A stretch of DNA of 64,000 bases from Candidatus Kaiserbacteria bacterium (GCA_016182485.1 JACPGH010000007.1:27656-91655), one strand, 5' to 3'. Positions 12,890 through 44,474 are shown, numbered from the stretch's first letter. Numbers and translations are program-made. The notes: generated by a model from the sequence alone, not told the origin.

Positions 12890-12892
12890 TTT

Positions 12893-15209: not shown

Positions 15210-15235
15210 GCTCTAAGTATACAGCATGAAACTAC

Positions 15236-30300: not shown

Positions 30301-33300
30301 CTGGCTGTCTCCCGTATTGAGGTTGATTCCTATGCTATTAGAATTCGGATTATTAATGGTGAAAATCGAAGTCGGCCCGGGTGTAAAATCAAATCGATCG
30401 CTGCCGCCGATTTGGACAGCCCCGTTTTGCATCACTAAGAGTCCCGCATTGCCGGCCGACAGTCCCCCCGCGAACGTCGAAGTCGCCGTCGTCGAGGTCG
30501 CGGTGAAATACTGTGAGACGGTTTCCCCAACCACCGAAAGTTTGGCATAGGGACTCGTCGTCCCGATACCGACGTTGCCAGAATTTGTAATACGCATTTG
30601 CTCCGTAGCAGAAGCTCCAGTTTCGAAAAGAATATTCCCGTAGGTAGCGCTGGCGCTCGTGTTGGTAATGTGTATGTTGCCGGTACTCGGATTATAAAGA
30701 TCAATGTACGCAATGTTATCAACTCCGAGAATCTTGCTTGTACTCAGCCCTAAATTGCCGGCGAGCGTATTGGAGGAACCGTTAAGCGCCATAACGTTTG
30801 TTGCGCCAACTCTCAGATTTAACACACTGTACCCGGCAGTTTTAAGGTATGATCCACTGTTTTCCGCGCTTATTTCCGTATACCACGTGGGGTCACTTGG
30901 TAAACTTGCTCTGACGTTCGTGCCCGCCACCAATCCACCAGTGAGCGTGGAAGTGCTTGTATTCGTAACGATAAGGTTCGTCAATGTCGACGTTCCCACT
31001 GCGAGCGTGCTTGTCCCCGTTATCGCACCACCAAAAAATCCTGTGCCACTAACATAACTATTGCCATGTACGCTTAACAGAGCCGCAGGACTCGTCGTCC
31101 CGATGCCGACGTTGCCCGTGTCGCTCTTGATGGCGATGTCTGTCCTCTGGATGCTGCCATCATCCGCCGAAATCCAGAAAGCATCGTCAATGATTCGGAG
31201 AATATGTTTCTTGCTGTTCGAGTTGTCTTGGAGGACGATACCCGGATTTGTGCCGCTGCCCGGGCCTATGTGCAGAGAGGTGGTGAGTGCCGTTGCAATG
31301 CCGCTTCCTGGGCTCGCCGTCCCGATGCCGACGTTGCCGGAAGTATCAATTCTCATTCTCTCTGTAGGTGTAAAACTATTGCCAGCTGTTAGCCCGCTGT
31401 TTGTGAAGAACCGAATATTCCCCAAATAATTTTCCACTTGCGAAGCCATCGTACTCCGGGCGACATAACTACTGCCATTCCACGACATTCCTCCGGCAAT
31501 ATTGCCTTGGCTGTCCGCAGTTGAAATGAGAAAGCCGCCACTGTTAGTCCCGTCGGAACCAAACCTTATTTGAGTATTTGAGCTTGCTGTGGCTATGTCC
31601 AGCTTATAGTTTGGCCCCGCCGTCCCGATGCCGACGTTGCCGGTGCTTGTTATTCGCATCCGCTCTGCAATCGTGGAATCGGTCTGCGTTGTCGAAAATT
31701 GCAGATACCCGGCGTTAGGGTTCGATTCCATTCTTCCTGCAATTGTGGCAAAGGCTAATGCACCTGTTGCTCCGCCACCAAAACCGGAGAATCGAAGTTG
31801 AGGACCTTTATCAATTGCTGCAGCATCGCTTGAACGTAAGACTAGGGTGCCAGCAGATTCGGCTGAATTAACCACTCCACTCGCTGCCTCAACCGTTAAT
31901 TTCCCACTTGGACTCGTCGTCCCGATGCCGACGTTGCCGCTCGACAAAGTAGTGCCAGTACCATCGATCCCCGTACCATAAATGAGATTGCCAATATTAA
32001 GAATATTTGATGAGGTGACCGCCGGAGCATCAATGTCGTAGCCTAGGATGATATTCCGCGAACCAGTCGTAAGCGCATCTCCTGCCTGATAGCCCAGGAG
32101 AATATTCCCCCCGCCGTAGGTGATGGCATTCCCCGCATTGTAACCAAGCGCTACGTTCCCTTCGGTATCATTGGAGGGGCCGGTAATCATATTAAGCAGA
32201 GCCTGATAGCCGATGGCGACTTGATTTGAAGAGCTCGTCGCTGTTTGAAGCGCACTCTGTCCCATTGCGATGTTGTAGCTACCCGTCGTATTGCTCAAGA
32301 GGACATTTACACCGATGCCGATGTTTGACGCTCCACTCGTATTCGCTGACATAGCACTTCTGCCGACAGCCGTATTGAAATCGCCCGTCACGATCGCGCC
32401 GCCAATCGCGTTACTACCGACAGCTGTATTATATGCGCCTGTGGAAATATGGTAGCCTGCTTGAAGTCCCAGACCAGTATTTTCGACACCCGTGGTATCG
32501 GCTAAGGCGTATGCTCCCAAAGCGGTAAGGCCATCTGTCGTGACATTGCTATTTAACGCTGATGTGCCTATAGCTACGTTATTGCTTGCAGTAGTAAGGG
32601 AGGCACCCGCCAAATAGCCCAAGACTGAATTATTGTTTCCTGTGGTCAAACTCTTCAAACCATAGCGTCCGATCGCGATATTAGAAGTTCCAGTGGTAAT
32701 ACTAGAAAGAACCAAGTCGCCGCCAATGCCAATATTGTAAGTTCCGGTCAAGGTCGTGTTTCCAGCCGGCGCACCGTTCGTGCCAATCATGAGATTGCCG
32801 GTACCGTAAGAGTCAATCCACCTGTTGTCTCCCATCTTTATTTGACCAACTGCTGTAGTTGTAACCGGAAGACGGAAGTTCCCAGTAATTTCTAATTGCT
32901 CCGCCGGCGTCGTCGTCCCGATGCCGACGTTGCCCGCGCTCGTTACTGTGAGATACGGCGTGACCGTATCACTCGAGGAGGCGATGCGGAAGAGGTCCGA
33001 GGTCTGGCCGCTCCAGCCCTGGACGAAGAGCGTCGAGGTGGCGGAGGTGAGCGAGGCGTCTTGTATATAGAGCGGCTGATTGAATTCAAAGCGCTTGCTC
33101 GACGTGGCGGCGTTCCAGGCCAGCTGAGCGTTCGGCGAACTGCTGCCGCGCGCGAACACTAGGTAGGCGCTCTCTTGATCTGCGGATGTGTTATCAGAAT
33201 TGACAGTGAGCGTCTCTGCCTGCACATTGCCGCCGACTATAGTGCCCACCACGGTGACCGCGCTCACTTCGTTGGCGTAGATTTTATCGAAGCGCACAGA

Positions 33301-36300
33301 CGGCGTGCCGATGTCCTGTGTGCCGTCAAGCGCTTCGATGTTGCCCGTGATGATGTTGGAGCCGATGCGGAGCGTCCCGCCAGCGGCGACGATGTCGTGA
33401 TTGCCCGTACCGGTGAAGGTGAGGCCCGATCCGGCGCCGTCTATCGTCACGCCGCCGTTCAAGAGCGACGCGCCGTTGACCGAGAACTTTGACGATGGGG
33501 TTGAAGTCCCTATGCCGACGTTGCCATCCGAGTCGATGATGAAAGGAGTGGAATCGGGAGAAGCAGTATCCTCTACGACAAAGGAAGGGAAACTATTATC
33601 GCCATTGGTCACGCTCAACTTCCCCCATGGAGTCGTTGTGCCAACACCGGCCGCCGATTTGCTTCGAGTGAGTGATAGAACCGTATTAACAACACCTCCC
33701 AGGGCCCGCTCGATATGCAGGTCTCCGCCGTTTGTATCCACTGCGGTCGTCGAGACGCGGAATCCCCAGGTCTGACGACCGCCGGTGAGCGAATCGCCCA
33801 AAGTAAGCACTTGATTAGAGCCAGCCGTGTCACCTCCCGAGGTAAGGATATTCAGCGCGCCAAGTGGAGCCTGTGTCCCTATTCCCACCCTCCCATTCGC
33901 GAGTACGGTCACGAGCGTGCTCGTCGAAGTGCCGGCAGTCGTAGACGCGATAGTGAAGAGCGGCGTGTCTACAGCCGTCGACGCAGAATTTGAGATCGAC
34001 AGGAGGGAGTAGGGAGAAGTCGTCCCGATGCCGACATTTCCTGCCGTATCGATGCGCATGCGCTCGAGATTGTTCGTGCCGAAGACGACAGGGTTATTCG
34101 AGGTAGCGCCGAAAGCGACTATGCCGCCCGCATCGGCCATATTTCCCTTGAACAATACGGAGTTGTTAAGTTGTAGCGCACCGAATAGATTCCCCGTCTG
34201 CGTCGTGCCATACACATCGACCGCGCCATAGGAGTTCCCGTCGTTTTGAATAGAGACTTGGGTCCTGCTATTGGGATCCGCCCCGGTTATCGCCACCTGC
34301 GTCTGCCCACTACCCGAACCGAGGATATCCAGCAATCTTGTGGGTACAGCTTTGCCGATACCGATCTTGCCGTTCGCGAGCACGGTCATGAGGGTCGAAG
34401 TCGAGGTGCCGCCGGTGGTCGAGGCGATGGTGAACAAGGGCGTGTTGACCGTTGTTTGTTGGCTGTTTGAAATTGAGAGAAGCGAATATGGAGAAGTGGT
34501 CCCGATACCGACGTTTACGGCGTTCGCGCCCGTGCCTCCCAGCACGAGAGAGTTGCTCGCGCCGACGATTGCGTTCGCGCCGATAGCCGTAGCGTTTGTC
34601 AAAGTACTCGAAGCCGCATCGGCCAAGTGGCCCAAGAACGTATTGTAGGTTCCTGTTGTGTTAGTCCAGCCTGCATAAGTCCCGAAGGCTGCGTTATTAC
34701 TACCAGTGGTGTTGTAGCGTAAAGAACGATATCCATAACCAGCGTTGAAGTTACCGGTCGTATTTACCGAGGCGGCTTGATAGCCCGCTACGGTGTTGTA
34801 ATCGCCAGTCGTGTTTGCATCTAACACAAGACTGCCAAGGGCCGTGTTGTAGCTGCCGGTCGTATTGGCGGTGAGAACCTGCAAACCGAGCGCCGTATTG
34901 TGCCTGCCCGTCGTATTTACTGGCAGAGTGTATCCGCCTATTGCCGTGTTGTAATCGCCCGTCGTGTTCGCATTGAGCGCGAGATTGCCGATCGCGGTGT
35001 TATATAGCCCGGTAGTGTTAGCGGTCAGCGTGTTCGCGCCGATGCCCGTGTTCTGCGTCCCGGTCATCGTGAAGTTGCCCGCGTCGAGGCCGAGGAATGT
35101 GTTGTCCGTGCCGTAATTGTGGAGGAAGCGCATCGAGTTGACGTATACGCCGCCGGCCGTCGCGGTCGAAGAGGCGAGGACGAGATTGCCGCTAAACGTA
35201 GTCCCGCCTGTGATAGTGAGCCGGCCGAAGGTGGCCTCCGCCGCCGCGACCGAGATGCCGTTCGTGAGCGTGCTCCTGTCGAAAGTCCCGCCGCCGAAGG
35301 TGCCGTTATTGATGGTCAGATTATCGAGCTTTTCGATTCTCGCCACTTGCTGAATGGTCGTGATATTGGTCGCGGTCTGTCGCGAGATTGGCGAGAGCAT
35401 GCCGCCGACGGTGGAGAGAATGTCGTTTTTGAGCGCATTGAGCGAGAGCGTAACGTAGTCCTGTGTGACGCCCTCGACGACGGTGGTGTAGAAGTTGGAG
35501 GCTGGTTGCTGGAGGCTGGTTACTGGAATGATGTAGGCGCTAGCCGGAGCGGAGGCGACAACCGGGGTGGAGCTTGCCGTGCCCTTCGTAGCCTTTGTCG
35601 CAGGCTTAGGCGAAGTAGGGGAGCTTGCCGTGCCCTTCGTAGCCTTTGTCGCAGGCTTAGGCGAAGTAGGGCTATATACGATGACGGGCGCTGGTGCGGG
35701 GTTCAAAAGATACGCGAGGCCGCTCGCCCCGTTAGAAATCAGATTTCTAACGGGGCTGGTCGCAGAGTCCCAAAAATTGTTGATCGCTCGGTAGGTCGTA
35801 AGCGCGACTTTTTCTCCGGCCGAGAGCTGGGAGATGACGGCGGCGACGGGAGTGCCTTCGCGGTTCATATTTTCAAGAAGAGCAGGACCCTTGCCGCGCG
35901 TCGCCTCGTACGCGCCGACGATGGTTCTGCCGACCGCGCTGAATATCTGCGGGTCATTCACCATCTCGCTGAACCTTCGAGGAGCGAGTGTGAGCGGCTG
36001 GGCGGCTGCGACACCCGCATACGCGAGGTCCCCGGTCCCGGTAACGAGGGCGAGATATCGGTCGGAAGCGAAGGCGGTCGCGCCGACGAAGCGGTGCGCG
36101 AGCGCGTACTCGGCGTCGAATACCGCCTGAGCGATTCTCGGCCCTGCTTCGCTCACGCTACGCAGGGCGAGCCCGGCTTTTTCTGGCGTTTTGATAGTAG
36201 CGGCGACAGTCGCCCGCGCGAGCAGATCGCCTGTATTCCCGACGAGCGCCACGGTGGCGCGCCCTGCTTCGTTAAAACTACGCAGGGCAAGAGCGCTTAC

Positions 36301-37398
36301 TTCAGGTGCGGCAGTGGCGGGTACATACGCGAGCGAGACGTCCGCCTGGATCGCCGCATGCGTGAGATCGATGACTGCATTGCCGAACGCGAGATTCACG
36401 CGATTGACGAAGGATGGGGAAGCGGCCAGCGCATCGCGCGCCGTCGCCGCGAAAGCGAGCGCTTCTCTCCCCGAGACATCGAGGAGCGATCGATACGTCG
36501 AAAATATTTTCTCGACCGCGCCGTACGAGTTCTCGCCAAGCGCGAGGTACTGCTCTTTGCCGACGCGCGCCACGTTTGCGGGCGCATGCAGGATAGCGCC
36601 TCGCATGCGCTCCGGAGAAGAGAGGAACGCGAATGTCTCGAGGATACTGTCCTCGAGAAGCTGGGCTTCGCTCGCAGACAATTCACGCGAAGTAATAGGA
36701 GAAGTGCCGCGCCCGCCGCTCGCCCCGTTAGAAATCAGATTTCTAACTGGGCGGGCATCAAGCTTCAGTACGAACAGTGGCGAAAGAGAGATGTCCTTAA
36801 TCTCTGACGTCGCATATGTCCTATGTGCATCCTCTGATTTGGTCGTATTCCTAAAGGACGCCGATTTACGCTGGTTCAGATCCGCGGATATCCTCTGATA
36901 TGGATCCGCGCTAATCTCCCGGAAGCCGAAAGCGACGACGCGCGCGAACGAACCGAGAGCGCGTGCTGCCTGCGGAATGATCGGGGTCTGCGCGGCGAAA
37001 GCCGCTCCGGTTACCACGAACGCGGCTACCGAAAGCGCGGCGAGTTGAGAACGCCATCCGCTAAACGCAGATGATCGCAGATCTAAATCCGCGGATATCC
37101 GCTGATTCAATTTGGCGGAAATCCGCTTATACATCTGCGGAATCCGCGCAGCATGCCGGTGTGAGCGATATTCAGCTTCGCGCGCGCGCGCGAGCGCGCG
37201 CGAATAATCAGACTTACGCGCTTCCTGCCGGTCAAGGAAGCGGATAAGAGACTCTCTGCCGACGAACCAGCTGTGGCCGATCTTTTTTCCGGAAATTTTC
37301 CCGCTGCGGACTAGACGCGCGAGGTAATCGGAAGTATATCCGGACAGCTCTCCAGCATCCTTTGTCGTGATCAGATTTCCGTTAAGAGAAGGATCCAT
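18340..37398 (-). CDS. Giant (6352 aa) membrane-anchored fibre/adhesin-like protein: N-terminal cytoplasmic HTH_17 (MerR/excisionase-type) domain, one TM helix, ~6000-aa extracellular region with YadA-head-like NTAIG/NTTG repeats and dozens of phage-tail-fibre-like GNVGIGTTSP repeats, two tandem peptidase-S74-like intramolecular chaperone domains, and C-terminal DUF5011-like Ig domains
   Basis: Uninterrupted 19,059-nt ORF. N-terminal motif ITTKDAGELSGYTSDYLARLVRSGKISGKKIGHSWFV. TM segment WRSQLAALSVAAFVVTGAAFAA. ggactcgtcgtcccgatgccgacgttgcc (GNVGIGTTSP on the minus strand) recurs throughout. CSASDERLKQDI…FYW…GLIAQQV…MILAIQEL matches the S74 autoproteolytic chaperone. PPIVTLNGEAAMQISEGQTFTDPGATATDETDGDLT…TDAAGN matches DUF5011. 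Confidence 0.8.
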   Translation of the reverse strand: MDPSLNGNLITTKDAGELSGYTSDYLARLVRSGKISGKKIGHSWFVGRESLIRFLDRQEARKSDYSRALARAREAEYRSHRHAARIPQMYKRISAKLNQRISADLDLRSSAFSGWRSQLAALSVAAFVVTGAAFAAQTPIIPQAARALGSFARVVAFGFREISADPYQRISADLNQRKSASFRNTTKSEDAHRTYATSEIKDISLSPLFVLKLDARPVRNLISNGASGGRGTSPITSRELSASEAQLLEDSILETFAFLSSPERMRGAILHAPANVARVGKEQYLALGENSYGAVEKIFSTYRSLLDVSGREALAFAATARDALAASPSFVNRVNLAFGNAVIDLTHAAIQADVSLAYVPATAAPEVSALALRSFNEAGRATVALVGNTGDLLARATVAATIKTPEKAGLALRSVSEAGPRIAQAVFDAEYALAHRFVGATAFASDRYLALVTGTGDLAYAGVAAAQPLTLAPRRFSEMVNDPQIFSAVGRTIVGAYEATRGKGPALLENMNREGTPVAAVISQLSAGEKVALTTYRAINNFWDSATSPVRNLISNGASGLAYLLNPAPAPVIVYSPTSPKPATKATKGTASSPTSPKPATKATKGTASSTPVVASAPASAYIIPVTSLQQPASNFYTTVVEGVTQDYVTLSLNALKNDILSTVGGMLSPISRQTATNITTIQQVARIEKLDNLTINNGTFGGGTFDRSTLTNGISVAAAEATFGRLTITGGTTFSGNLVLASSTATAGGVYVNSMRFLHNYGTDNTFLGLDAGNFTMTGTQNTGIGANTLTANTTGLYNTAIGNLALNANTTGDYNTAIGGYTLPVNTTGRHNTALGLQVLTANTTGSYNTALGSLVLDANTTGDYNTVAGYQAASVNTTGNFNAGYGYRSLRYNTTGSNNAAFGTYAGWTNTTGTYNTFLGHLADAASSTLTNATAIGANAIVGASNSLVLGGTGANAVNVGIGTTSPYSLLSISNSQQTTVNTPLFTIASTTGGTSTSTLMTVLANGKIGIGKAVPTRLLDILGSGSGQTQVAITGADPNSRTQVSIQNDGNSYGAVDVYGTTQTGNLFGALQLNNSVLFKGNMADAGGIVAFGATSNNPVVFGTNNLERMRIDTAGNVGIGTTSPYSLLSISNSASTAVDTPLFTIASTTAGTSTSTLVTVLANGRVGIGTQAPLGALNILTSGGDTAGSNQVLTLGDSLTGGRQTWGFRVSTTAVDTNGGDLHIERALGGVVNTVLSLTRSKSAAGVGTTTPWGKLSVTNGDNSFPSFVVEDTASPDSTPFIIDSDGNVGIGTSTPSSKFSVNGASLLNGGVTIDGAGSGLTFTGTGNHDIVAAGGTLRIGSNIITGNIEALDGTQDIGTPSVRFDKIYANEVSAVTVVGTIVGGNVQAETLTVNSDNTSADQESAYLVFARGSSSPNAQLAWNAATSSKRFEFNQPLYIQDASLTSATSTLFVQGWSGQTSDLFRIASSSDTVTPYLTVTSAGNVGIGTTTPAEQLEITGNFRLPVTTTAVGQIKMGDNRWIDSYGTGNLMIGTNGAPAGNTTLTGTYNIGIGGDLVLSSITTGTSNIAIGRYGLKSLTTGNNNSVLGYLAGASLTTASNNVAIGTSALNSNVTTDGLTALGAYALADTTGVENTGLGLQAGYHISTGAYNTAVGSNAIGGAIVTGDFNTAVGRSAMSANTSGASNIGIGVNVLLSNTTGSYNIAMGQSALQTATSSSNQVAIGYQALLNMITGPSNDTEGNVALGYNAGNAITYGGGNILLGYQAGDALTTGSRNIILGYDIDAPAVTSSNILNIGNLIYGTGIDGTGTTLSSGNVGIGTTSPSGKLTVEAASGVVNSAESAGTLVLRSSDAAAIDKGPQLRFSGFGGGATGALAFATIAGRMESNPNAGYLQFSTTQTDSTIAERMRITSTGNVGIGTAGPNYKLDIATASSNTQIRFGSDGTNSGGFLISTADSQGNIAGGMSWNGSSYVARSTMASQVENYLGNIRFFTNSGLTAGNSFTPTERMRIDTSGNVGIGTASPGSGIATALTTSLHIGPGSGTNPGIVLQDNSNSKKHILRIIDDAFWISADDGSIQRTDIAIKSDTGNVGIGTTSPAALLSVHGNSYVSGTGFFGGAITGTSTLAVGTSTLTNLIVTNTSTSTLTGGLVAGTNVRASLPSDPTWYTEISAENSGSYLKTAGYSVLNLRVGATNVMALNGSSNTLAGNLGLSTSKILGVDNIAYIDLYNPSTGNIHITNTSASATYGNILFETGASATEQMRITNSGNVGIGTTSPYAKLSVVGETVSQYFTATSTTATSTFAGGLSAGNAGLLVMQNGAVQIGGSDRFDFTPGPTSIFTINNPNSNSIGINLNTGDSQSAFVNFSRSSAVKWGLGLPYSASDNFVISKGNAPAEDSSAVFTILSSNNNVGIGTTSPNNNLQVVSGAAGSAPLAITNTSDNYTVRVTSSGALPYWQFTNAAVSAVVNAGIDASSLNLGRGNVQIIGSDTPTASTIPARLYVVGDGTNPAAIFNTGNIGIGTTTPSARLDIVPTTVPSQTYAPIMILESRLANGYSEQGGYIGFRQVDVGNNVVTNDAARIVAVHDNFQAEQGDTGLSFWTTPANLSVAERVRISSTGNVGIGTTTPGVLLDVVKNSTSDNGTIFPTVRVRNLSTSDKSYAQFQVDVAGGGVTSYWQGEGVGTGKLGTPGAFIGTYTNHPFAFVTNDSEKMRLTAGGNLGIGETAPGSKLSVSGGATIGASYDTTVAPTNGLIVEGNVGIGTTSPYSLLSISNSAGTTVNTPLFTIASTTAGNSTSTLMTVLANGNVGIGTAAPGYTLDVTKSEPGNYVANFYNSNTTNGSHGMYVNVAQGSNTNALVVATEGTPRLTVNSTGVVSGGNFTTTSGYIGYDVNHNLNWTGSAYRLLSNADPITFVGAYELMRITAAGLVGIGSTTPWGQLSASSTSAYPTLAIEQKSTGPAAVFLGGNVGIGTTSPASLFSVHGNGLFSGNITAANITATGTLTAANISTTGYLSTSNAAVGGDDWYISAGDSGHLGFFKDSTAVSTNGKMVLTTGGLLGVGGGLNTATVPAEELEVYSSSGVTAIRITGDSNQGAPELQFNMRNGVANQAKIVGSSGESHNSPELQFYVNTGADSTNTLVQRMTINDLGKVGIGTTSPYSLLSISNSAGTTANTPLFTIASTTGGTSTSTLMTVLANGRVGIGTAGPSTLFDIVSNSSATSTIRQFLTSDAGPALQLIHARGTASAPSATCGVDCSSDTLGQIDFMGYDGSAYQTGARIIAEAAGNGSWSPGGLGTSLVFYGVDTNTSSLAERMRFQPNSTVEFFGLGASGLSLTGSQMIVSSSFRFGYGGTTQDGYVPATGPDGWGMISSTGSFRVNLDADNDNTGQAFVIGHHQTDGDATNNVLMVVNDSGNVGIGTTTPNWLLQAAGTRPSFALSDSSAGANLKHWLFSSMGGNLYVGTSTDAYGTSTPAALTITNAGNVGIGKAIPNFLAEFSRSDTTSTRSGNISAEIAVVNDLPGTNYGPGAGIRFLAPTGGVTPTPSVGRILGTFGGNCYGNDCSLLVFQTTTGANVFSDAMIISGTEVSIGTPTINPAVPLEVVGSVAPSSVGAAGILQLYRGVNDGVSYPNIAEFALGRYQVGDTNPYSRLDINLKSSGSFDKTGDVTVMTLQANGNVGIGTTSPGALLSISGGPASILFNRPNNSHDGGLTLDSNGAALWKVGFIGGLTSNNFYIRDGKDDKTLLAFAAAGLDNAISVSATQVAIASTLYANGSGNVGIGTTSPAALTSIGGDLFVGASTAGGTNGKLGIGVANPVQIIHAVGSTPYIRLDDSASSPAGKIVYFGNNAGRIILGTDAGTSGRKFSIGYNAPDDSMFIADSTGNVGIGTTSPLNLLHIATSGDDMTFGGNAGANVAGNLYYSSGWKYIEAAGGAAIGINDNNRAGDIGFYTAPSGAVGSAATLSARMYIQEGGNVGIGTTSPDALLNIQNYGGGQGLNSQFIVNSGYAAGPGSISMSVVNSGNVFLGFDVDEVAAAMVARGTAASMLRELNGELLFTGDTGLTMNSAFTPTTRMTLDLSNGKFGIGSTTPWGQLSASSTSAYPTLAIEQKSTGPAAVFLGGNVGIGVTNPTSKLVVAGSTSASPNDYVAVFRTIDDAANRPIIRIENSAQSELARWDYNGYLTAPGFYATSNYVLSVAPGNIIIASQSGSTLQMGDVNGKAQKLSLYSNGVESLTIDTSGNVGIGTTSPWGVLSVTNAGSGPSFVVEDTESPDATPFTIDAGGSVGIGVSNPALSLQVNGAAGVPANSGTTATGRVRFSGTDNIAMDFGALNTSPWSAWIQVHDSTDQSVNYPLSLQTNGGNVGIGTTNPGATLQVGTNVLTVSATTSNVGIGTVSPLATLHVAGDIFQPYSQQIRSGLDNTSIYGYLELYNTSTGNLTLQAHSANNRSALINPNGGNVGIGTTSPWADLHVRDTAQSAGITDTPDSWLNALFERAWGSSSAAGIAIVGSSKSTGGNGVVYLGNSDDWDNTALSGGNDVFKLYVGATIPFITAQGTGSGDGKLSIATTSANQVLTLYQPANDVAIELSALAGPTYKWTMGMDYSDGGKFKIASSSALGTDDRFVIDGNGNVGIGTTSPESRLAVAQPSAISSTFDLATLDANTNVTNASGVTQRGLVLKMPTFTMNNAPATLTGARIETGSPGQFDQGGDVATVRGIEITSGNWLGNTGGFTWRGVQITTPTMRKDHSGGNAQESYGIDITTGATTGSGTNGINTGLRITGGSQSNAGIQRGLHINMADASHAALIVQTGNVGIGTTTPGVLLDVYKSSNLVSRFDSGSHNYLRLNRGAVTNNNELEFQTNGTTNWAMGLGDDSENKFYITTNNAVPSDGAKLTITTAGNVGIGTTSPVGHLEIANTTTNNTRLILRGTTGNGAVLINGTDLTTAQEWFKIDAFGRASFDEQAQSTAETPAVNISNLTGYGIFGSSYLGFTTNASEKMRITSGGNVGIGTTSPYSILSISNAAGTAVNTPLFTIASTTAGTSTSTLMTVLANGNVGIGAAAPGGKLSVAGNIFFGDESHYLSTDNSTYAMLSSNRDVQLSISGNPKLTVQASTGNVGIGTTTPTNTLTVSGTRVAGSLTSVAKIGTSGFGGQTGDAIGLLFSDTATGGYDFARIQTRAPGGSNMALDFGVWDGSTISNYMTIIKNGNVGIGTTSPQSKLHVTGGFSGITPLAGTVLTVENSGSNYLSLLAPNANEQALLFGSPNNVADGGVFYSPNGLSRGMSFRTGGNATQMVINSTGNVGIGTTTPLSILQTTTGGDNYFVMDNKNYATSEGIWRLHVGNTTDFFSIEQNTAAVRDFSTSYTPFFIGGVSGGYNQRVGIGTTTPGSKLSIAGGVSVGTNYGAAAPTNGMIIEGNVGIGTTSPGTLLSLGDTGANTINISATATSTFGSGIDIRTGCFAINGVCVGGGSGTGTVGSGTAGQFPYYAGTGTTLTATSSLYVATNERVGIASSTPFAKFAVENTSAALSFAVNDQAGDPTPFVIDDSGDVGIGTASPGGQSERFSIVTTAGSASAMTIYNGSDPNYIGEFGIDASTGNLIITSRLVGSGVQPIYMSASAIGLGTTTPATLLEVGGETANVTFDGYKNCTGFTSNGNGLLACSASDERLKQDISPLATASGLSAIDALRPVSFYWDPAAERSSQKQFGLIAQQVREVFPDLVQTSAPTSLTPDGTLSINYDGLAAPMILAIQELSTTSTRLAGRVGTLENEITALTGGYFGFSYEGSISARNEPVTAPIIANWVYASSTPASIVENLQKPAEGIEPSEIEVTGSFPHQAAGLFTVYGNVAADSFVASTSVWTSNLAVTNEGYINRLTAQEVSATSFVNTSTRALKTDINYMSASSTEAVLGKVRGLKVATYRYAAEAGSNPLRLGLIAEDARETAPEILSIDGNGVDLYKLATLTLAGVQTLAEKVDRAEVRLTSLEARLAALESGAVSSASGSPVSFSTTSLASAFNAFGAYIAKGIAQFGTLVADQFVAATNSAGTSSAGTVKIIAGNTVAEVQNAYVKPSTKIFVTFTASTTGSWYIAEKKDGSFRLVLESPQAGDTSFDYFLIQTEGQMATSTPESQISNSQFSISNSNTSTQWITVLGDNPYLIEVGGNFVDPGIDAGGAPVTTYINGVESEVGPGTIDTSSETTYIITYRVLGPNGSIMATRSVIVGNGSVVAGTTSQESQVTSQESSATPESEVISPDSDSQPPIVTLNGEAAMQISEGQTFTDPGATATDETDGDLTAKIATSGSADTATAGSYTLTYSATDAAGNTGSVSRLVTVIEPLSAATETSTTPQ
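18548..18570. repeat. Fifth copy of the REP palindrome (tgtgaaggtctgaccttcac), lying in frame inside the C-terminal DUF5011-like domain of the giant gene
   Basis: Identical 19-bp palindrome to the REPtron flanks. Encodes SEGQTFT. Confidence 0.7.
35567..35690. repeat. Perfect ~62-bp tandem duplication inside the giant gene (encodes SPTSPKPATKATKGTASS x2)
   Basis: ggagcttgccgtgcccttcgtagcctttgtcgcaggcttaggcgaagtaggg appears twice in succession. Confidence 0.85.
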
Positions 37399-38021: not shown

Positions 38022-38795
38022 CTATCTGTCTATTTCATAGACTACTACCCCTGCCATGAGCGAGGCTCGTTTATCCGATTCTATATATTTATCGAAATAT
38101 CCAGTGCCAAGTATCGCCAGGGCCATAGTACACACGGCAACTAAAGCTCCAGACAGATATATCGCAGAGACCATCCTCTTTCCTCTGCTTTTAGGCTGAT
38201 CGTCTCCTTTATCCTCTGCTTCCTTCGGGAAATCCGGCAGCAGCTCCTTAGGAGGATGCCGGTATATGGCGCGGATTGGTATGTCTACCGATTCTTCGCT
38301 CTTCTCTCCGGGTCCTTCCACGCGTTCCGCGCGCTCTTCAGGCTCGAAATTGGCCTTCTCTATTTCGTTGGACGCTGTAATTGGGGTCGTAGCTATGCTT
38401 GCAACCTGCTCAAACCATGATTTCCAAGTCTCTGCCATATTCAATGGCGCAGATTCCGCGGAATTGTTCTCATCCGCGGATATCCGCTGATTTGAATCGG
38501 CGGTTATCAGCTCCTCCAGAGGAGCAGGCCCGTAGCGTGGAGATTCCCAGGCAGAAGAGACAAAAGATCGTGACTCATGGCTCTTTCCCCTCTTAGGCTC
38601 CTGTTTGGGAGTCTCCTCGCCGAAGCGATGATCGCGGACCGCAGTCTCAAGAACATACCAATTCCGACCTACTAGCCTGGCAGGCAGACGCCCTTCTCGG
38701 CACAGCTGCCCTATGTAATCCTTCGCATACCCGGTTACCTTCGCAGCTTGTTTTGACGATATGTACTTCTTGTCTTCGATAAGCAGCTCGTCCAT
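38022..38795 (-). CDS. Small paralogue of the giant protein's N-terminus: HTH_17-type DNA-binding domain + RISAD repeat region + C-terminal TM anchor (257 aa)
   Basis: KYISSKQAAKVTGYAKDYIGQLCREGRLPARLVGRNWYV aligns with the giant N-terminus. Shared palindromic DNA motif atccgcggatatccgctgat. C-terminal hydrophobic helix. Confidence 0.6.
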   Translation of the reverse strand: MDELLIEDKKYISSKQAAKVTGYAKDYIGQLCREGRLPARLVGRNWYVLETAVRDHRFGEETPKQEPKRGKSHESRSFVSSAWESPRYGPAPLEELITADSNQRISADENNSAESAPLNMAETWKSWFEQVASIATTPITASNEIEKANFEPEERAERVEGPGEKSEESVDIPIRAIYRHPPKELLPDFPKEAEDKGDDQPKSRGKRMVSAIYLSGALVAVCTMALAILGTGYFDKYIESDKRASLMAGVVVYEIDR

Positions 38796-38847: not shown

Positions 38848-40347
38848 CTATCCTATTCGTTCCCGTAGCAACTTTTGCAGTTCTTGAGGATTGCCCGCTC
38901 CGCGGCTCTCCCGCATAGCCTGCCCGACCAGGTACTGAAGGGAGGCCTGTTTGCCGCCTCTGTACTCCTCAACCGCCTTCTGCTCGCGGGCAATTACGGA
39001 ATCAACTATGGCGCCGAGCGCAGTCGCATCGTGCACTTGGATAAGATCGTGCTCCTTCGCGATAATTTCCGGATCTTCATTACCGCCGCCTTCTACTAAA
39101 AGCGCGAGCGTATCCTTCGCGCCGCGGGAAGAGAGCGACTGGGCTTTCACCAGCTTGATGAGTTTTGCGAATGCATTTGGATCCAGTGATTCGTAATCTT
39201 CATTCCCTTTCTTTGCGTATATACCGGCAAGATCTGAAACTATGTAATTTGCCGCCAGACGAACATTATCCGAATCATTTGAAAGCGCGGCTGCGACGGC
39301 GTCGAAGAAGGCCGCCCGCTCGAGAGTGCCTGAGACATATGCGATATCGTTCTCCTTAAGCGCATAGTCTCTCGCGTACCGCTCGCGCCGGAGCCAGGGC
39401 AGCTCGGGCAGCGACGCGCGTATCGCTTCAGTCCCGAATTCCGGAATCTCAGAAATAAGCAGCTTGGGCAGATCGGGTTCCGGAAAATACCTATAGTCGG
39501 CGCTCCCCTCTTTAAACCGCTGGTGGAAGGTCTCCTGTTTTTCTTCGTTCCAGCCGCGCGTCTCCTGCACCACCTTCCCTCCTTCTTGGAGCAGTTTCGT
39601 CTGCCGCTTGATCTCAAAATCAATCGCCCGCTCCACTGACCTAAACGAATTCAGGTTTTTTATTTCGACCTTTGTTCCCAGTTTTGAATTTTGGTCATTG
39701 GTGCTTGTTTGGTTCTTGAGATTTGGTTCTTGGGATTTAGCCACGCTGACGTTCGCCTCGATGCGCATCTCGCCTTTTTCCAGATTCGCTTCGCTGGCGC
39801 CGAGAGTGCGCAAGAGAAGCTGCAGTTCGCGCGCGAAGCGGCCGGCAGTCGAAGCATCGGGGATGACCGGCTCCGTTACTAGCTCCATGAGCGGGATGCC
39901 CGCGCGATTGAAATCGACGAGACTCCTTCCTGCAGTCCGTTCGCTGCGCTCAGGATCTCCGGCTTCGCCTGCGACGTGAATAGAGCGGGCGGTATCTTCT
40001 TCGAGATGCACGCGCGTCAATTCCACTCCAACAAGAGAGCCGCCGACAACAAGCGGGTTGGCATACTGACTGATCTGATACCCCTTCGGAATATCCGGGT
40101 AAAAATAGGACTTGCGATCGAATTCGCTGTAGTCCGCGAGCGCGCCGCCGAGCGCGGTGCCGACACGCAGGATATGCCGCACCGCCTCCCGATTCGCTAC
40201 CGGCAGAGTCCCGGGGTGAGCGAGACAAATGGGACATATATTGACGTTCGGCCGCGTCTCGTCCGGATCGTTCGCGCAGGAGCAGAACATCTTGGTCCGG
40301 GTCTTGAGCTCGGCGTGGATCTCGAGACCGATGGTAGGACGATACAT
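38848..40347 (-). CDS. gatB: Asp-tRNA(Asn)/Glu-tRNA(Gln) amidotransferase subunit B
   Basis: MYRPTIGLEIHAELKTRTKMFCSC…, GatB/YqeY C-terminal domain. Start set at the conserved N-terminus; the upstream extension is repeat read-through. Contains an in-frame family-2 repeat insert at 39655-39765. Confidence 0.85.
   Translation of the reverse strand: MYRPTIGLEIHAELKTRTKMFCSCANDPDETRPNVNICPICLAHPGTLPVANREAVRHILRVGTALGGALADYSEFDRKSYFYPDIPKGYQISQYANPLVVGGSLVGVELTRVHLEEDTARSIHVAGEAGDPERSERTAGRSLVDFNRAGIPLMELVTEPVIPDASTAGRFARELQLLLRTLGASEANLEKGEMRIEANVSVAKSQEPNLKNQTSTNDQNSKLGTKVEIKNLNSFRSVERAIDFEIKRQTKLLQEGGKVVQETRGWNEEKQETFHQRFKEGSADYRYFPEPDLPKLLISEIPEFGTEAIRASLPELPWLRRERYARDYALKENDIAYVSGTLERAAFFDAVAAALSNDSDNVRLAANYIVSDLAGIYAKKGNEDYESLDPNAFAKLIKLVKAQSLSSRGAKDTLALLVEGGGNEDPEIIAKEHDLIQVHDATALGAIVDSVIAREQKAVEEYRGGKQASLQYLVGQAMRESRGAGNPQELQKLLRERIG
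39655..39765. repeat. Family-2 AT-rich repeat (ttggtcattggtgcttgtttggttcttgagatttggttcttgggattt) inserted in frame in gatB
   Basis: Identical motifs to the intergenic copies at 40375-40535 and 41932-41995. Encodes …KSQEPNLKNQTSTNDQNSKLGTKVEIKNL…. Confidence 0.7.
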
Positions 40348-40374
40348 ATGCGAAAGATACTTCATAAAGCACCA

Positions 40375-40535
40375 AATCTCAAATCGCAAGATCCAAGATG
40401 AGTGCCCAAGAACCAACCTCTAAGAACCAAACAAAAACCAATGTCCAAAGGACCAATGTTTTATTTTTGAAGATTGGTGCTTGAAATTTGTTTGGTACTT
40501 GGGGTTTGGTGCTTGGAATTTAGTATTTTTGAGAG
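40375..40535. repeat. Family-2 AT-rich imperfect-palindrome element (arms caagaacca… / …ttggtgcttgg), complete copy between gatB and obg
   Basis: Left arm ccaagaaccaacctctaagaaccaaacaaaaaccaatg and right arm cattggtc…ttggtgcttgaaatttgtttggtacttggggtttggtgcttgg are roughly reverse-complementary. Confidence 0.7.
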
Positions 40536-41483
40536 TGTACCCGAGAATGCTTTGACCGATTCGGGCTCTTCGACCGTGACTGAAAGCACTTCCCTGCCGG
40601 TACTAGCGGCTAGAAGCTGGATCCTGGTTTCTCGTTCTGCGGCAGATATGAGGTCTATTTTTGACAGGATAATAATCTCTCGTTTGCGGGTCAGGCCTTG
40701 GCCGAATGCCTCAAGCTCTTTGCACACCTCCTCATAGGCCTTTAGCGGGTCATCTTGGTCTGCCGAGACGAGATGCAAGAGAATACCTGTCCTTTCTATA
40801 TGCTTCAGGAATTTTATGCCGAGTCCTCGGCCAGCCGAGGCGCCTTCTATCAAACCAGGTATATCGGCCAGGATATAGCCATAGAAATCGCCGAGCGTTG
40901 GTTCGAGGGTTGTAAAGGGATAGTCCCCTATCTTAGACTTCGCGCGAGTAAGGGCGTTTAAGAGAGAGGATTTCCCGGCATTGGGCAAGCCAATGAGCCC
41001 CACATCGGCGATAAGCTTGAGAGACAGCTCGATATTCCCCTCCTTCCCCGGCTTGCCGGCTGTCTGCTGGAAAGGATTCCGGTTCGTAGAGCTCTTGAAG
41101 CGCGCGTTGCCGAGCCCGCCCTTCCCCCCGCGGAAGATAATGATGCGCTCCCCTTCTTCCTTCACCTCGTACTCCTTCCCGACCGAGGGCACTCGGACAT
41201 GCGTTCCGACCGGGACCTTAAGGAGAACCGGCTCGCCGTCCGCCCCGGTCTGAAGCTCGTTCTTCCCAGCTTCGCCGTCTTCTGCCTTAAATTTTTTCTC
41301 ATATTTATAATTGGCGAGAGCGGCATAATCACGCACTCCAACCAGAATAACGTCGCCTCCCCTGCCGCCATCCCCGCCCGAGGGCCCGCCCTTCGCCTTT
41401 TCTTTGGTCCGCCGCCAGCGAATGACGCCGTCGCCGCCCTTCCCCGCCGCGGCGTAGATTGTCACCTCGTCTACAAATGCCAT
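40461..41483 (-). CDS. obg: GTPase Obg/CgtA
   Basis: Obg fold N-domain (GGDGG repeats), G1 GLPNAGKSS, G3 DIPGLIEGA. Start set at MAFVDEV. The C-terminal 23 aa are encoded by the family-2 repeat. Confidence 0.85.
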   Translation of the reverse strand: MAFVDEVTIYAAAGKGGDGVIRWRRTKEKAKGGPSGGDGGRGGDVILVGVRDYAALANYKYEKKFKAEDGEAGKNELQTGADGEPVLLKVPVGTHVRVPSVGKEYEVKEEGERIIIFRGGKGGLGNARFKSSTNRNPFQQTAGKPGKEGNIELSLKLIADVGLIGLPNAGKSSLLNALTRAKSKIGDYPFTTLEPTLGDFYGYILADIPGLIEGASAGRGLGIKFLKHIERTGILLHLVSADQDDPLKAYEEVCKELEAFGQGLTRKREIIILSKIDLISAAERETRIQLLAASTGREVLSVTVEEPESVKAFSGTLSKILNSKHQTPSTKQISSTNLQK

Positions 41484-41571
41484 TGCACCACGATACGCTA
41501 AAAAGAACCAAGAACCAAATCGCAAGAACCAAACAAACCACGCTAAAAAGAACCAAGGACCAAACAAACAC
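41484..41571. repeat. Family-2 element, left-arm type (aagaaccaa periodic repeats)
   Basis: aaaaagaaccaagaaccaaatcgcaagaaccaaacaaaccacgctaaaaagaaccaaggaccaaacaaaca. Confidence 0.65.
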
Positions 41572-41931
41572 TCAGGATACCTTATTGATGATTGCAGTAA
41601 GTATGAGCATGATTTCCCGCGCCTCGGATCTCAAGCGATGGCATTCCGCTATTCCATTTTCATTTGACTCTAGCAAGGAAAGCCAAAAGGCACTTTCCTT
41701 TGCTTCTTTTCGAGATATCCGCAATCTCATAACGAAGTCCTTCTTCCCGAGCGCCTCATTTCCTTCAATATAATTTGCCCCAATGGCTCCGGATGAGCGA
41801 ACTAATTGCTTAGCATCTTCATTGTTTTGTATGGTTTTCGGTAATCTGGAAACAAGCTTTCGTACGTCTTGAGCAAAAATCAGCGTCCTTTCTTCAAGAT
41901 TAAAACGTTTGCTCTTTTGAACATTGGTCAT
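41572..41931 (-). CDS. Four-helix-bundle protein (second paralogue; PF05635/TIGR02436 family)
   Basis: 119 aa. SSGAIGANYIEGNEA…KDFVMRLRISRKEAKESAFWL. Sits between the left and right arms of a family-2 element. Confidence 0.75.
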   Translation of the reverse strand: MTNVQKSKRFNLEERTLIFAQDVRKLVSRLPKTIQNNEDAKQLVRSSGAIGANYIEGNEALGKKDFVMRLRISRKEAKESAFWLSLLESNENGIAECHRLRSEAREIMLILTAIINKVS

Positions 41932-44474
41932 TGAGATTTGTTTGGTTCTTGCGATTTGTGATTTGGTACTTCAATAATACTCCATCCGTCGGCGAGGAAC
42001 GGTTCGGCTTTTTTATATTTTATCGTCTTCGTTTCGTCGCCTTTTTTGATGGTAACAAAATCGTTCCGGCCGTAGGATTGCTTGTTTACGATCGGCTGAG
42101 ACCCGGAGTCTTCCGAGCCGGCGGCTATGAGTTGCGCCCGGATCTTCGCTTCTTCCGCCCTGATGCGCGCCTCGTCCCGCGGCAGGATGTGCGGAACCAT
42201 CTCGGCGATGGTGGCACGGATATTTTCTTCGAGCTGACGGAAGCGCGCGAGCCCTTCGCGCCGATACTCGATGAGAGGATCCCGCTGGCCATACGCGCGC
42301 AAGGACACCGAGCGGCGCAGATAATCCATCGCCTCTAGATGCTCGAGCCAGAAAGTGTCGATTACCTGCAGAAGGAGTCTCCGGAGGGTCGCTCCGAACG
42401 CCTCGCCTAGCTCGGCCTTCCTGGCTTCGAATGTCTCGAGGGTCTGCGCAGGCGCGCCCGCGAGCATCTCCCGGACGATCTCTTCCACTTCGGCGTTACT
42501 CCCGAGAAGCGCGGTCCGGCGGCGAGCATAGATCGCGAGCCGCTGGGTATTCATCACGTCGTCGTAGGCGAGCACCTGCTTGCGCGCGTCGAAGTTGAAG
42601 CCCTCGATGCGCTCCTGCGCCGTCTCGAGCGACCGCGTTATCATCGCGCTCTCTATCGGCTCGTCCTCGGGAATGCCGAAGCGGCCCATCACCTTCTTCA
42701 GGGTCTCAGACGCGAACACGCGCATCAGCTTGTCTTCCAGAGATACGTAAAATCTCGTTTCGCCGGGATCGCCTTGGCGGCCGGAGCGGCCGCGCAGCTG
42801 ATTGTCGATGCGGCGCGCGTCATGCCGCTCCGTGCCGATGACCACCAACCCTCCCTTTAAGAGAACGGAGGCGCGCTCGTCCGCAGTGGCGCGCGCGCCG
42901 CCGAGCTTGATGTCGACGCCTCGGCCGGCGAGGTTGGTCGCCACCGTCACCCTCCCCTCCTTCCCCGCCTCCGCAATGATCTCGCCTTCGCGTTCGTGAT
43001 TCTTAGCGTTCAGCAACTCGTGCGGCACTCCCGCCTCGGCGAGATACCCGCTCACCAGCTCGTTGTCCTCGATCGATACGGTGCCGACGAGGATCGGCTG
43101 GCCTTTCTCATGCCGTTCCTTCACGGCTTTCGCCACCGCGCGGTATTTCCCGGCCGCCGTCTGGAATATGAGGTCGTCGTGATCCTTGCGCGCGACCGGC
43201 TTGTTAGTCGGGATGGCTACGACCTCGAGCCCGTAGACTGTATAAAATTCTTCCTCGGAAGAGAGGGCCGTGCCCGTCATGCCCGCGAGCCGCGCATACA
43301 TACGGAACAGATTTTGGAACGTCACGGTCGCGTACGTCCGCGTTTCTTCTTTCACTGCGGCGCCTTCTTTCGCCTCGATCGCTTGATGCAGGCCCTCCGA
43401 CCAGCGGCGGCCGGGCTGGAGCCTGCCGGTAAACTCGTCGACGATGACTATCTCGCCGCCCTGTACCACATATTCCTTATCCTTATGGAAAAGCGCCTTG
43501 GCGCGCACGGCCGTCTCAAGATGGTGCGCGTACTTCACCCCGCCCTCGGTATATAAGTTCTCGAGGCCGAGCGCCGCTTCGGCTTTTTTCATTCCCGCGT
43601 CCGTCACTTGGATCGCCTTCTGCTTCTCGTCCACCGTGTAATCCTCTCCCTCCCGCATGTGCTCGACGATGCCGGCGAACCGCTCGTAGAGCATCTGCGA
43701 ATCTCCCGCGGGCCCCGAGATGATAAGCGGAGTGCGCGCTTCGTCGATCAAGATCGAGTCTACCTCGTCGATGATCGCGTAATGGAAGCCGCTCTGCCGC
43801 TGGACTATCTGCGGCATTTCATACGCGGTATTGTCGCGCAGGTAATCGAATCCCAATTCGTTGTTCGTCACGTAGGTGATGTCCGCGGCGTACGCCTCCT
43901 GCTTGGACACCGGCCGCAGATAATCGTAAAAGACGAGATACGCCCCGGCTACATCGCGCGCCTCGTCCTCCTGCTTCTCCGTATGCGATGCGTCATATCG
44001 AAAGGCGCCGGAACTCGTCACCACGCCCACCGAAAGGCCGAGATAATCGTAGATCTGTCCCATCCAGGCCGCATCGCGCCGCGCGAGATAGTCGTTCACC
44101 GTGATGATGTGCACGCCTTTGCCGGAGAGCGCATGGAACGTGGCCGGTAGAGTCGCGACCAGCGTCTTCCCTTCTCCGGTGCGCATCTCGGCGATCTTCC
44201 CCTGCGCGAGCGCGAGCCCTCCCGCGAGCTGGACATCGAAATGGAACTGCCCGAGGGTACGGCGCGCCGCTTCGCGCACGAGAGCAAATACAAGCGGCAA
44301 GTCCTCCTCCCGAGCGGCTTCGCCCTTGAGCGCCGCGAGCCTCCCGGAAAGCGCCTCTTTCGGCAGTCCCGTAAGCTCGCCCTCGAGCGCATTCACCCTC
44401 TCGATGGCCGGCGCCGCCGCTTTGAGAAATGCGGCGGATTGATCCTTAGAGAATAAGCGCGAAAGCCCTAACAT
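41928..44474 (-). CDS. secA: Preprotein translocase ATPase SecA
   Basis: MLGLSRLFSKDQSAAFLKAAAPAIERVNALE… N-terminus, DEAD-like motor domains, GTERHDARRIDNQLRGRSGRQGDPG. Start set at the conserved Met; the upstream 100-codon ORF extension is not supported. Confidence 0.85.
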   Translation of the reverse strand: MLGLSRLFSKDQSAAFLKAAAPAIERVNALEGELTGLPKEALSGRLAALKGEAAREEDLPLVFALVREAARRTLGQFHFDVQLAGGLALAQGKIAEMRTGEGKTLVATLPATFHALSGKGVHIITVNDYLARRDAAWMGQIYDYLGLSVGVVTSSGAFRYDASHTEKQEDEARDVAGAYLVFYDYLRPVSKQEAYAADITYVTNNELGFDYLRDNTAYEMPQIVQRQSGFHYAIIDEVDSILIDEARTPLIISGPAGDSQMLYERFAGIVEHMREGEDYTVDEKQKAIQVTDAGMKKAEAALGLENLYTEGGVKYAHHLETAVRAKALFHKDKEYVVQGGEIVIVDEFTGRLQPGRRWSEGLHQAIEAKEGAAVKEETRTYATVTFQNLFRMYARLAGMTGTALSSEEEFYTVYGLEVVAIPTNKPVARKDHDDLIFQTAAGKYRAVAKAVKERHEKGQPILVGTVSIEDNELVSGYLAEAGVPHELLNAKNHEREGEIIAEAGKEGRVTVATNLAGRGVDIKLGGARATADERASVLLKGGLVVIGTERHDARRIDNQLRGRSGRQGDPGETRFYVSLEDKLMRVFASETLKKVMGRFGIPEDEPIESAMITRSLETAQERIEGFNFDARKQVLAYDDVMNTQRLAIYARRRTALLGSNAEVEEIVREMLAGAPAQTLETFEARKAELGEAFGATLRRLLLQVIDTFWLEHLEAMDYLRRSVSLRAYGQRDPLIEYRREGLARFRQLEENIRATIAEMVPHILPRDEARIRAEEAKIRAQLIAAGSEDSGSQPIVNKQSYGRNDFVTIKKGDETKTIKYKKAEPFLADGWSIIEVPNHKSQEPNKSQ
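41932..41995. repeat. Family-2 element, right-arm type (ttggttctt repeats)
   Basis: cattggtcattgagatttgtttggttcttgcgatttgtgatttggtacttc. Confidence 0.65.

Follow-up and report, generated by a model that had tools for sequence, protein, structure and literature searches.

A 64,000-nucleotide stretch of DNA from a Candidatus Kaiserbacteria bacterium (GCA_016182485.1, JACPGH010000007.1:27656-91655; hereafter the window) carries AT-rich palindromic repeats around the genes secA, obg and gatB, designated family 2. With a probability of roughly 0.7, these tracts represent an insertional element of the type known as intervening sequence (IVS) in rRNA genes, here located outside rRNA: a gene of the PF05635 family within inverted heptamer arrays, accompanied by derivatives that lack the open reading frame (ORF) or consist of a solo arm, selfish in nature and probably processed by RNase III in mRNA. 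The following were established directly: how the element is built, at which sites syntenic relatives have or lack it, that most related PF05635 genes are flanked in the same way, that the two arms co-vary, and that the composition is compatible with translation. One full copy would occupy the secA-obg junction, an internally deleted ORF-less palindrome the obg-gatB junction and a solo arm a permissive loop of GatB.

Heptamer tracts in the window

The 9-mer AAGAACCAA occurs ten times in the window against 0.30 expected, a count reached in none of 100 shuffles, and nine of the ten copies lie within 39.7-41.95 kb. Period-7 tracts of the form CAAnnnn/TTGnnnn number 47, compared to 1.15 in shuffled sequence, and are found in two blocks, at 11.8-19.0 kb (family 1) and 39.7-42.0 kb (family 2), plus one weak tract at 34445. 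When the window was scanned for period 7 irrespective of heptamer type, or flavour, 26 tracts were obtained versus 0.3 expected. The units are degenerate, with CAA constant and the other four positions variable, and form head-to-tail 7-nt arrays as heptameric simple sequence repeats (SSRs) do. Family 2 is palindromic, phased and lower in G+C than its surroundings, and the flavours of the two families do not intermix within the window. The initial annotation had described a second AT-rich palindromic family with phased tracts, confined to the gatB-obg-secA region and apart from family 1, and these counts bear out both points.

Five independent assemblies from other sequencing runs were 100% identical to the window across the elements, which are therefore not an assembly artefact. 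Heptad copy number likewise does not vary between these samples of one population, all five being identical. The ~15-16 kb past the two window ends (~9 kb and ~6 kb) contain no tract of either family. At gathering score no Rfam family covers the elements, and no rRNA was detected in the window.

The cassette between secA and obg

The genes secA (to 41928), a 119-aa ORF (41572-41931), obg (41486-40461) and gatB (from 40365 or 40347 to 38848) all lie on the minus strand. The 119-aa ORF is flanked by two arms on the same strand. The 5' arm (41932-41973) is built of the tandem heptamers ACCAAAT, CACAAAT, CGCAAGA, ACCAAAC and AAATCTC, followed by a single A and the ATG, while the 3' arm region (41495-41571) consists of two tandem units with a spacing of 45 nt, whose 25-nt cores (41495-41519 and 41540-41564) are 96% identical, and terminates 8 nt ahead of the obg start codon (41486-41484). 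Over 35 nt, 41937-41971 and 41503-41537 are 86% complementary, and a closing stem of ~24 bp around the whole ORF was predicted in both the minimum free energy and the centroid RNA structure. Of the four copies of family 2 that had been listed for this region, the tracts are confirmed at slightly different limits (39682-39741 in GatB, 40367-40523 for the palindrome, 41495-41571 and 41932-41973), but the entries at 41484-41571 and 41932-41995 do not count as two copies, being the 3' and 5' arms, respectively, of one PF05635 cassette.

The cargo is a four-helix-bundle protein gene of PF05635 (23S_rRNA_IVP, 'S23p'; E 2.6e-12, 47.3 bits, cutoff 33.8) and of NCBIfam TIGR02436 ('four helix bundle protein'; E 1.4e-20). 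The gene is intact, with every residue that is invariant in a 26-sequence alignment conserved; the protein has 5370 relatives, and its nearest solved structure is 2rld_A. Its ATG follows the last heptamer directly (…CCAAACAAATCTCA|ATGACCAATG) and no Shine-Dalgarno sequence is present. The secA stop TGA (41930-41928) overlaps this ATG as ATGA, so that the last 13 residues of SecA (VPNHKSQEPNKSQ) are encoded by the 5' arm. Within the arms no gene was found besides the PF05635 gene, itself no known transposase, and neither PF05635 protein of the window (a second is described below) matched a PADLOC defence-system model at E≤0.01. The protein is 57-62% identical to P0083, P0106 and P0113, named from Salinimicrobium (Bacteroidota), Gemmataceae (Planctomycetota) and Desulfobulbaceae, respectively. 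Such identity is unusually high across distant phyla and would be compatible with horizontal spread of the cassette.

ORF-less palindrome and solo arm

Between obg and gatB lies an ORF-less palindrome of 157 nt (40367-40523, minus strand) with an inverted pair of 43 nt at 74%, folding at -55 kcal/mol (z -4.67). It had been listed as a complete copy and amounts to the arm pair of the cassette minus the gene. In its 5'-type arm (40465-40523) lie the codons for the 19 C-terminal residues of Obg (NSKHQTPSTKQISSTNLQK, stop 40463-40461), the loop (~40450-40464) contains a remnant of the cassette ORF start (CCAATCTTCAAAA versus CCAATGTTCAAAA) and the 3'-type arm (40367-40449) is intergenic. A solo 5'-type arm with ORF-start remnant (..CACCAATGACCAAAATTCAAAA) is found at 39682-39741 on the minus strand, in frame in a surface loop of GatB (AKSQEPNLKNQTSTNDQNSK). 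It replaces ~18 nt of the base state for a net gain of ~42 nt. The resulting insert of ~13-14 residues appears as a 13-residue gap in a loop of the Aquifex GatB structure 3h0l_B and as +14 aa relative to relatives. That a repeat resides inside gatB had been annotated correctly; what it amounts to is a single arm, an in-frame insert of ~13-14 residues.

All three 5'-type arms can be aligned in register across 59 nt, non-repetitive sequence included, and the alignment takes in the first 17 nt of the PF05635 ORF (ATGACCAATGTTCAAAA in the cassette, ATGACCAAAATTCAAAA in gatB and CAATCTTCAAAA in the palindrome loop). As the ORF-less copies hold a fragment of the ORF start, they look like deletion derivatives of an ORF-bearing cassette. 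No sense frame of the 5'-type arm contains a stop, and each of the three serves once, in the SecA tail, the Obg tail and the GatB loop; across the box CCAAACAA the frames read CCA AAC AAA, ACC AAA CAA and AAC CAA ACA in the three proteins. This lack of stops in any sense frame would account for the element being tolerated at and inside essential genes.

A second site of variable length was observed in GatB, at 39930-39970 (residues ~124-136), where the window has VAGEAGDPERSER. Inserts are present at this site in 33 of 120 relatives, several with the recurring peptide (A/E)GDPERSER, and it may represent another translated repeat element.

Gain and loss among syntenic relatives

Proteins identical to those of the window are assigned by NCBI to Candidatus Kaiserbacteria, a lineage of the candidate phyla radiation (CPR). 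Four relatives with GatB 71-74% identical to that of the window were compared, three of them fully syntenic (L147, L148 and L149) and one a short contig covering obg-gatB only (L150). In L148 and L149, the SecA stop is 1 nt from the Obg start, obg and gatB are 5 and 15 nt apart, the GatB loop is short (SV-SEEEGK-LGTK) and no period-7 tract was found in 13 kb. L147 has a cassette at the secA-obg junction with CGAAAT-type arms and an internally deleted ORF, 14 nt between obg and gatB, no Obg tail, and a CGAA-type insert of +9 aa at the identical site in GatB. L150 shows one TTGGTAC-type arm at obg-gatB and a CCAAGAA-type GatB insert of +12 aa. The window itself combines the intact cassette with CCAAGAA-type arms, the 157-nt palindrome and a CCAAGAA-type insert of +14 aa. 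The palindrome between obg and gatB is absent in L147, L148 and L149.

L147 has AAGCACGAAATCCGAAATTCGAAATACGAAACAAGG… and …CTTGTTTCGGATTTCGTGCTTCG as arms and GCTAAATCCGAAGCACGAAGCACGAAACCTGAAACAGAGCCAAAA as GatB insert. Its 86-aa ORF (8647-8907, annotated without Pfam domain) is an internally deleted PF05635 gene, in which the N-terminus (..YDLEDRTLKFAGNVRAFVKELP..) and C-terminus (..ELMFILSSIMRKV) are kept and the central GANYxE..KESxxWL part is lost, which shows that the cassette has decayed in a relative. The same GatB loop contains varied repeat-like inserts in ~25 of 120 GatB relatives, for example RSTKSETNS, the peptide encoded by CGAAGCACGAAATCCGAAACAAAT. Because sites are empty in some relatives and filled in others, the elements are insertional, and gain or loss has occurred within the time span separating these lineages. 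At orthologous sites the flavour changes in concert within a genome, which may reflect homogenisation among copies or repeated insertion at permissive sites.

Related cassettes and heptamer motifs in other genomes

One genome per species was searched for AAGAACCAANNNNNAAGAACCAAACAA, a 27-nt pattern in which 22 bases are fixed and of which, by our arithmetic, ~0.07 matches would be expected by chance. It was found at 60 loci in more than ten phyla, including Omnitrophota, Saccharibacteria, Paceibacterota, Gracilibacteria, Planctomycetota, Bacteroidota, Chloroflexota, Cyanobacteria, Ignavibacteria, Acidobacteriota, Firmicutes and a Thermoplasmata archaeon. None of these loci carries the three matches present in the window, whose own genome is thus not one of the representatives searched. 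A complementary arm was located downstream at 20 of 57 evaluable loci (none in shuffles), and ten of the 57 are pure (AAGAACC)n arrays.

The reverse test started from 80 metagenomic loci encoding the closest relatives (50-64% identity) of the protein at 41572-41931. Complementary flanks (score ≥15) surrounded 52 of the 73 PF05635 genes for which both flanks were available, with a median of 18.5; the corresponding figures were 1/73 (median 7.9) for shuffled flanks and 1/76 for neighbouring genes of these loci. The only positive neighbouring gene (L081, 4369-4848) lacks a Pfam domain and lies between low-complexity flanks of A and T only. Around the PF05635 genes, the arms consist of tandem heptamers whose flavour varies with the locus, such as CGAAATn, CTAAATn, aCAAATa and CCAAGAA, and many of them close with a AAACAAAT box right before ATGAC, as in the window. 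Arms co-vary: pairing with their own partner scored 18.4 on average versus 13.8 with foreign ones, a result reached in none of 2000 permutations. The flavour tracks protein similarity weakly (62.0% versus 59.0% identity), and this difference of three points makes a strict specificity of the protein for its heptamer unlikely, unless arm turnover is fast. None of 20 sampled related cassette loci was located in rRNA.

At a number of metagenomic loci (L071, L120-L122, L129-L131 and L141), several arm sets in tandem or truncated gene starts were observed beside an intact PF05635 gene. These arrangements suggest local duplication or nesting of cassettes.

Family 1

The block at 11.8-19.0 kb contains a cassette of its own on the minus strand, between gap and a giant surface-protein gene. 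It comprises a 5' arm at 18294-18343 (TTTTTCAATTTACAATTTCCAATTTTCAAATAAGGACCAATTTTCA|ATG), a second PF05635/TIGR02436 gene of 119 aa at 17934-18293 (E 1.7e-40 in a hidden Markov model (HMM) search, 5.2e-24 against TIGR02436), whose product is 33% identical to the first, and a 3' arm at 17868-17933 (TTGAAAATTG.. heptamers) that pairs with the 5' arm into a long closing stem (z -2.4). ORF-less palindromes and arms (11792-16817) run along nearly every gene junction between recG and the giant gene; those of recG and a kinase gene, the kinase gene and tkt-C, tkt-C and tkt-N, tkt-N and rpe, rpe and rpiB, and rpiB and gap are occupied. Both families share CAAnnnn heptads on the sense strand of the gene, inverted arms, PF05635 cargo and an ATG set in a CAATG heptad. 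Family 1 and family 2 are flavours of one element class, differing in sequence and alike in architecture. The initial annotation had called the families unrelated, which is correct for the sequence and does not hold for the architecture, as the period of 7, the CAA phase, the inverted arms and the PF05635 cargo are common to both.

Further period-7 tracts were observed within coding sequence of the split transketolase and ribulose-phosphate epimerase, at 13529-13558, 14696-14726, 14739-14770 (tkt-N) and 15925-15966 (rpe). They encode peptides such as ..PETRNQKPE.., ..QFSISNFKN.. and ..IENWKLEIENWEG.., and are probably further in-frame repeat inserts. The giant ORF (18340-37398, minus strand, 6352 aa) has more than 30 internal repeats with a conserved core GGACTCGTCGTCCCGATGCCGACGTTGCC, coding a motif of the 'GNVGIGTTSP' type, and in its C-terminal part heptad tracts at 18662-18693 and 18966-18999 are translated as SQESQVTSQES and SNSQFSISNS.

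RNase P RNA and other repeats

An RNase P RNA gene (bacterial class A, RF00010) was found at 194-849 on the plus strand, with E 7.7e-20 and 66 bits against a gathering score of 100. Two near-identical hairpins built of heptads of a third flavour (four CTGGAnn units and their complement) are inserted in its helices, one in the P3 loop (~224-290) and one in a second helix (~544-606), both on the plus strand and neither carrying an ORF. A third insert of ~140 nt lies near the 3' end (~650-810). Heptad hairpins at the helix tips of a structured RNA are once more the situation seen with IVSs.

Another short perfect palindrome, TGTGAAGGTC(T/A)GACCTTCACA, is present in five copies (910-979, 1719-1788 and 18550-18574), four of which are arranged as two pairs, spaced 45 nt, on either side of a 236-aa gene (985-1695) of unknown function. 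A repeat ATCCGCGGATATCCGCTGAT at 36874-36916, 37081-37123 and 38466-38508 encodes '..QRISADL..' peptides of the giant protein's N-terminus and of an HTH_17 protein (38022-38795). The GatB relative P0143 has a peptide similar to the QRISADL type, 'RLNADSRG', in its loop insert.

Interpretation

All genes of the region are co-oriented and the arms are therefore probably transcribed in one RNA with secA, the four-helix-bundle gene, obg and gatB. In such a polycistronic RNA long stems would form between the arms. Judging from the 23S rRNA IVSs of Coxiella, Leptospira and Salmonella, in which cleavage has been demonstrated, these stems would be RNase III substrates, and cutting would uncouple or destabilise segments of the transcript. 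The elements would behave as selfish DNA that is gained, decays and leaves remnants, with heptamer number and sequence turning over fast through slippage and homogenisation among copies. Nothing in the sequence indicates termination or promotion: a scan of the region gave three terminators versus 4.3 expected and two promoters versus 1.2, none above background, and no terminator-like site was found within the elements, whose stems are AT-rich without a T tail.

Several observations weigh against an IVS-type element. By tblastn and HMM search, a PF05635 gene was found near only one of the 60 motif loci, and the palindromes may be independent entities whose loops sometimes receive this gene. The reverse test used the closest relatives of the window protein, so its result may not extend to the whole PF05635 family. 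Stem mismatches on the sense strand are 71 G-U versus 61 A-C, and given this symmetry there is no sign of pairing selected on the sense RNA; a palindrome acting at DNA level or young copies would fit equally. No mobility signature, transposase or other, was found, and no target-site duplication was evident on comparing filled with empty junctions, the flanks of which are much diverged (~74% protein identity).

The same count of motif loci, most of which are ORF-less, led us to reject the idea that a PF05635 gene accompanies each heptad palindrome.

Alternative explanations

The excess of palindromes over genes at the motif loci would be expected if pre-existing heptad palindromes were primary and PF05635 a separate mobile gene homing into their loops, as at rRNA helix tips; classical IVSs do reside at the hairpin tips of 23S rRNA (PMC4990558) and the heptad hairpins of the RNase P RNA gene have no ORF. 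Since the empty secA-obg site is a 1-nt gap without hairpin, arms and gene were both added there, and the first ORF codons in the ORF-less copies point to deletion derivatives rather than virgin targets. We consider homing unlikely.

The near-exclusive location at junctions of co-oriented genes, the stable stems and the co-varying arms would also fit hairpins that evolved in place as signals serving the host, such as terminators, attenuators, stabilising 3' hairpins or protein-binding arrays, with the gene a mere neighbour. Such an origin is distinctly unlikely, because the same junctions are empty in close syntenic relatives, where the genes lie 1-15 nt apart, copies also occur within the coding sequence of GatB, tkt and rpe and in the RNase P RNA, T-runs are lacking and terminators and promoters are not enriched, and a fragment of the cassette ORF is kept in ORF-less copies.

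The initial annotation had read the partition of the window as two unrelated palindromic families that spread in successive waves. The flavours are indeed unmixed (11.8-19.0 kb versus 39.7-42.0 kb), but each block has its own matching cassette on a shared architecture, the flavour differs at orthologous sites between relatives (L147 is of CGAA type at both the secA-obg and the GatB site), a further flavour (CTGGAnn) is present at 224-606, and two blocks in 64 kb with ~16 kb of flanks hold no timing information. Successive waves are thus unsupported and very unlikely; local seeding or homogenisation from a cassette already in place, or renewed insertion at permissive sites, accounts for the partition no less well.

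Plain heptamer microsatellites, arising by polymerase slippage in AT-rich spacers and alike between sites by convergence, are an extremely improbable explanation, even though heptameric SSRs are over-represented in many bacteria with strain-variable length (PMC4692102; also among Coxiella strains) and pure arrays occur across phyla, since slippage makes no inverted partners such as those at the motif loci and cassette genes, the window copies align through non-repetitive sequence into the ORF, and the junction where arms and ORF occur jointly is empty in relatives.

Implications

The origin, mobility and function of rRNA IVSs and their 'S23p' gene have been open since ~1990, and the over-representation of heptamers in bacteria is likewise unexplained. 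The IVS-type element favoured here suggests that rRNA IVSs and heptamer repeats belong to one element type residing mostly outside rRNA. Elements of this type would come and go between close relatives, persist in part as ORF-less copies and solo arms, and be translatable within essential proteins, as in the loop of GatB and the tails of SecA and Obg. This reading predicts RNase III cuts in mRNA, binding of heptamer arrays by the four-helix-bundle protein and a correlation of flavour with the nearest cassette. A broader proposal is possible, though doubtful: that PF05635 cassettes with inverted heptamer arms form a widespread, unrecognised class of mobile or self-propagating elements, manifest as rRNA IVSs, Xanthomonas (possibly also cyanobacterial) heptamer repeats, in-frame peptide inserts and tails of CPR housekeeping proteins and RNase P hairpins, in which a pentameric four-helix-bundle protein related to Avd recognises the arrays and drives copying or homogenisation of the arms. 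Protein-driven homogenisation of this kind, if true, would explain the concerted change of flavour at orthologous sites.

For the annotation of CPR genomes, the RNase P RNA of the window is an example of a gene missed at the Rfam gathering score; in addition, C-termini and loops of proteins are made of repeat DNA and start sites are mis-called inside arms.

Comparison with known systems

The accessory protein Avd of diversity-generating retroelements (DGRs) is a pentamer that binds nucleic acid and, like the window proteins, a small four-helix-bundle protein. Passages of the review literature tie PF05635 to DGRs (PMC10053308). Unlike in DGRs, neither PF05635 gene of the window has a template/variable repeat pair beside it, and no reverse transcriptase domain was found among their neighbours, SecA, Obg, GatB, GAPDH and the giant protein.

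Rickettsia palindromic elements (RPEs), reportedly described by Ogata et al. in 2000, are said to be small and inserted in frame in essential protein genes at permissive surface sites, where they are translated. The GatB arm, one side of a small palindromic repeat, similarly lies in frame in an essential protein gene. It is unlike RPEs in sequence, host phylum and heptad construction, and RPEs are not known to be associated with a PF05635 gene.

As in MITEs (miniature inverted-repeat transposable elements) and repetitive extragenic palindromic (REP) sequences, the ORF-less copies are short non-coding palindromes found in multiple copies at gene junctions, and they resemble internally deleted derivatives sharing the termini of a longer element. 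The 157-nt palindrome at 40367-40523 has the terminal inverted repeats and the small size of a MITE. In contrast to both groups, the elements have no transposase or RAYT partner, the four-helix-bundle protein being the only cargo, their arms are tandem heptamers and not a unique terminal inverted repeat, and there is no recognisable target-site duplication.

Heptamer arrays are best described in Xanthomonas, where ~180 GGGAATC arrays per genome, with ~70 convergent pairs able to form stem-loops, are positionally conserved between species, variable in length, transcribed and unexplained in function (PMC4692102). The window elements are like these pairs, and like the heptamer SSRs and short tandemly repeated repetitive (STRR) sequences of Nostoc and Calothrix, in their degenerate 7-nt unit and mostly intergenic arrays. 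The published description sets the Xanthomonas arrays apart: they are G-rich, a G-quadruplex reading is given for such repeats, and no link to S23p/PF05635 or IVSs is drawn (PMC4692102). In a library that is incomplete, so that a prior description is possible, no report was found of heptamer palindromes tied to PF05635 genes outside rRNA.

The closest counterpart is the ORF-bearing 23S IVS, which lies in the 23S (or 16S) rRNA gene at helix 9, 25 or 45. That of Coxiella burnetii is a 428-nt selfish element carrying an S23p ORF, with a 28-bp terminal stem that RNase III cuts midway, at the first repeat; between its weak Shine-Dalgarno sequence and the ATG lie three tandem heptamers (GACAGAT) and, abutting the ATG, a degenerate fourth. 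Heptamer number differs among strains, the RNA is labile once excised and the ORF is in decay (PMC4990558). PF05635 ORFs, termed functionally uncharacterised, are also present in 16S and 23S insertions of CPR bacteria (PMC11270868). The window elements differ in lying outside rRNA, between secA and obg and between gap and the giant surface-protein gene, in being accompanied by many ORF-less palindromes and solo arms, in having pieces translatable as protein tails and a loop insert, and in their heptamers (CCAAGAA/CAAATCn and CAATTTn); RNase III cleavage, published for the Coxiella IVS, is a prediction for them. In the remaining respects the two agree: the cargo belongs to the same S23p/PF05635 family as in the IVSs of the Coxiella burnetii, Leptospira, Brucella and Xanthomonas type, terminal inverted repeats enclose the ORF with a stem of ~25-30 bp, a period-7 tract runs into the ATG with a weak or absent Shine-Dalgarno sequence, and the occurrence among relatives is sporadic with an ORF prone to decay, as in the deleted copy of L147.

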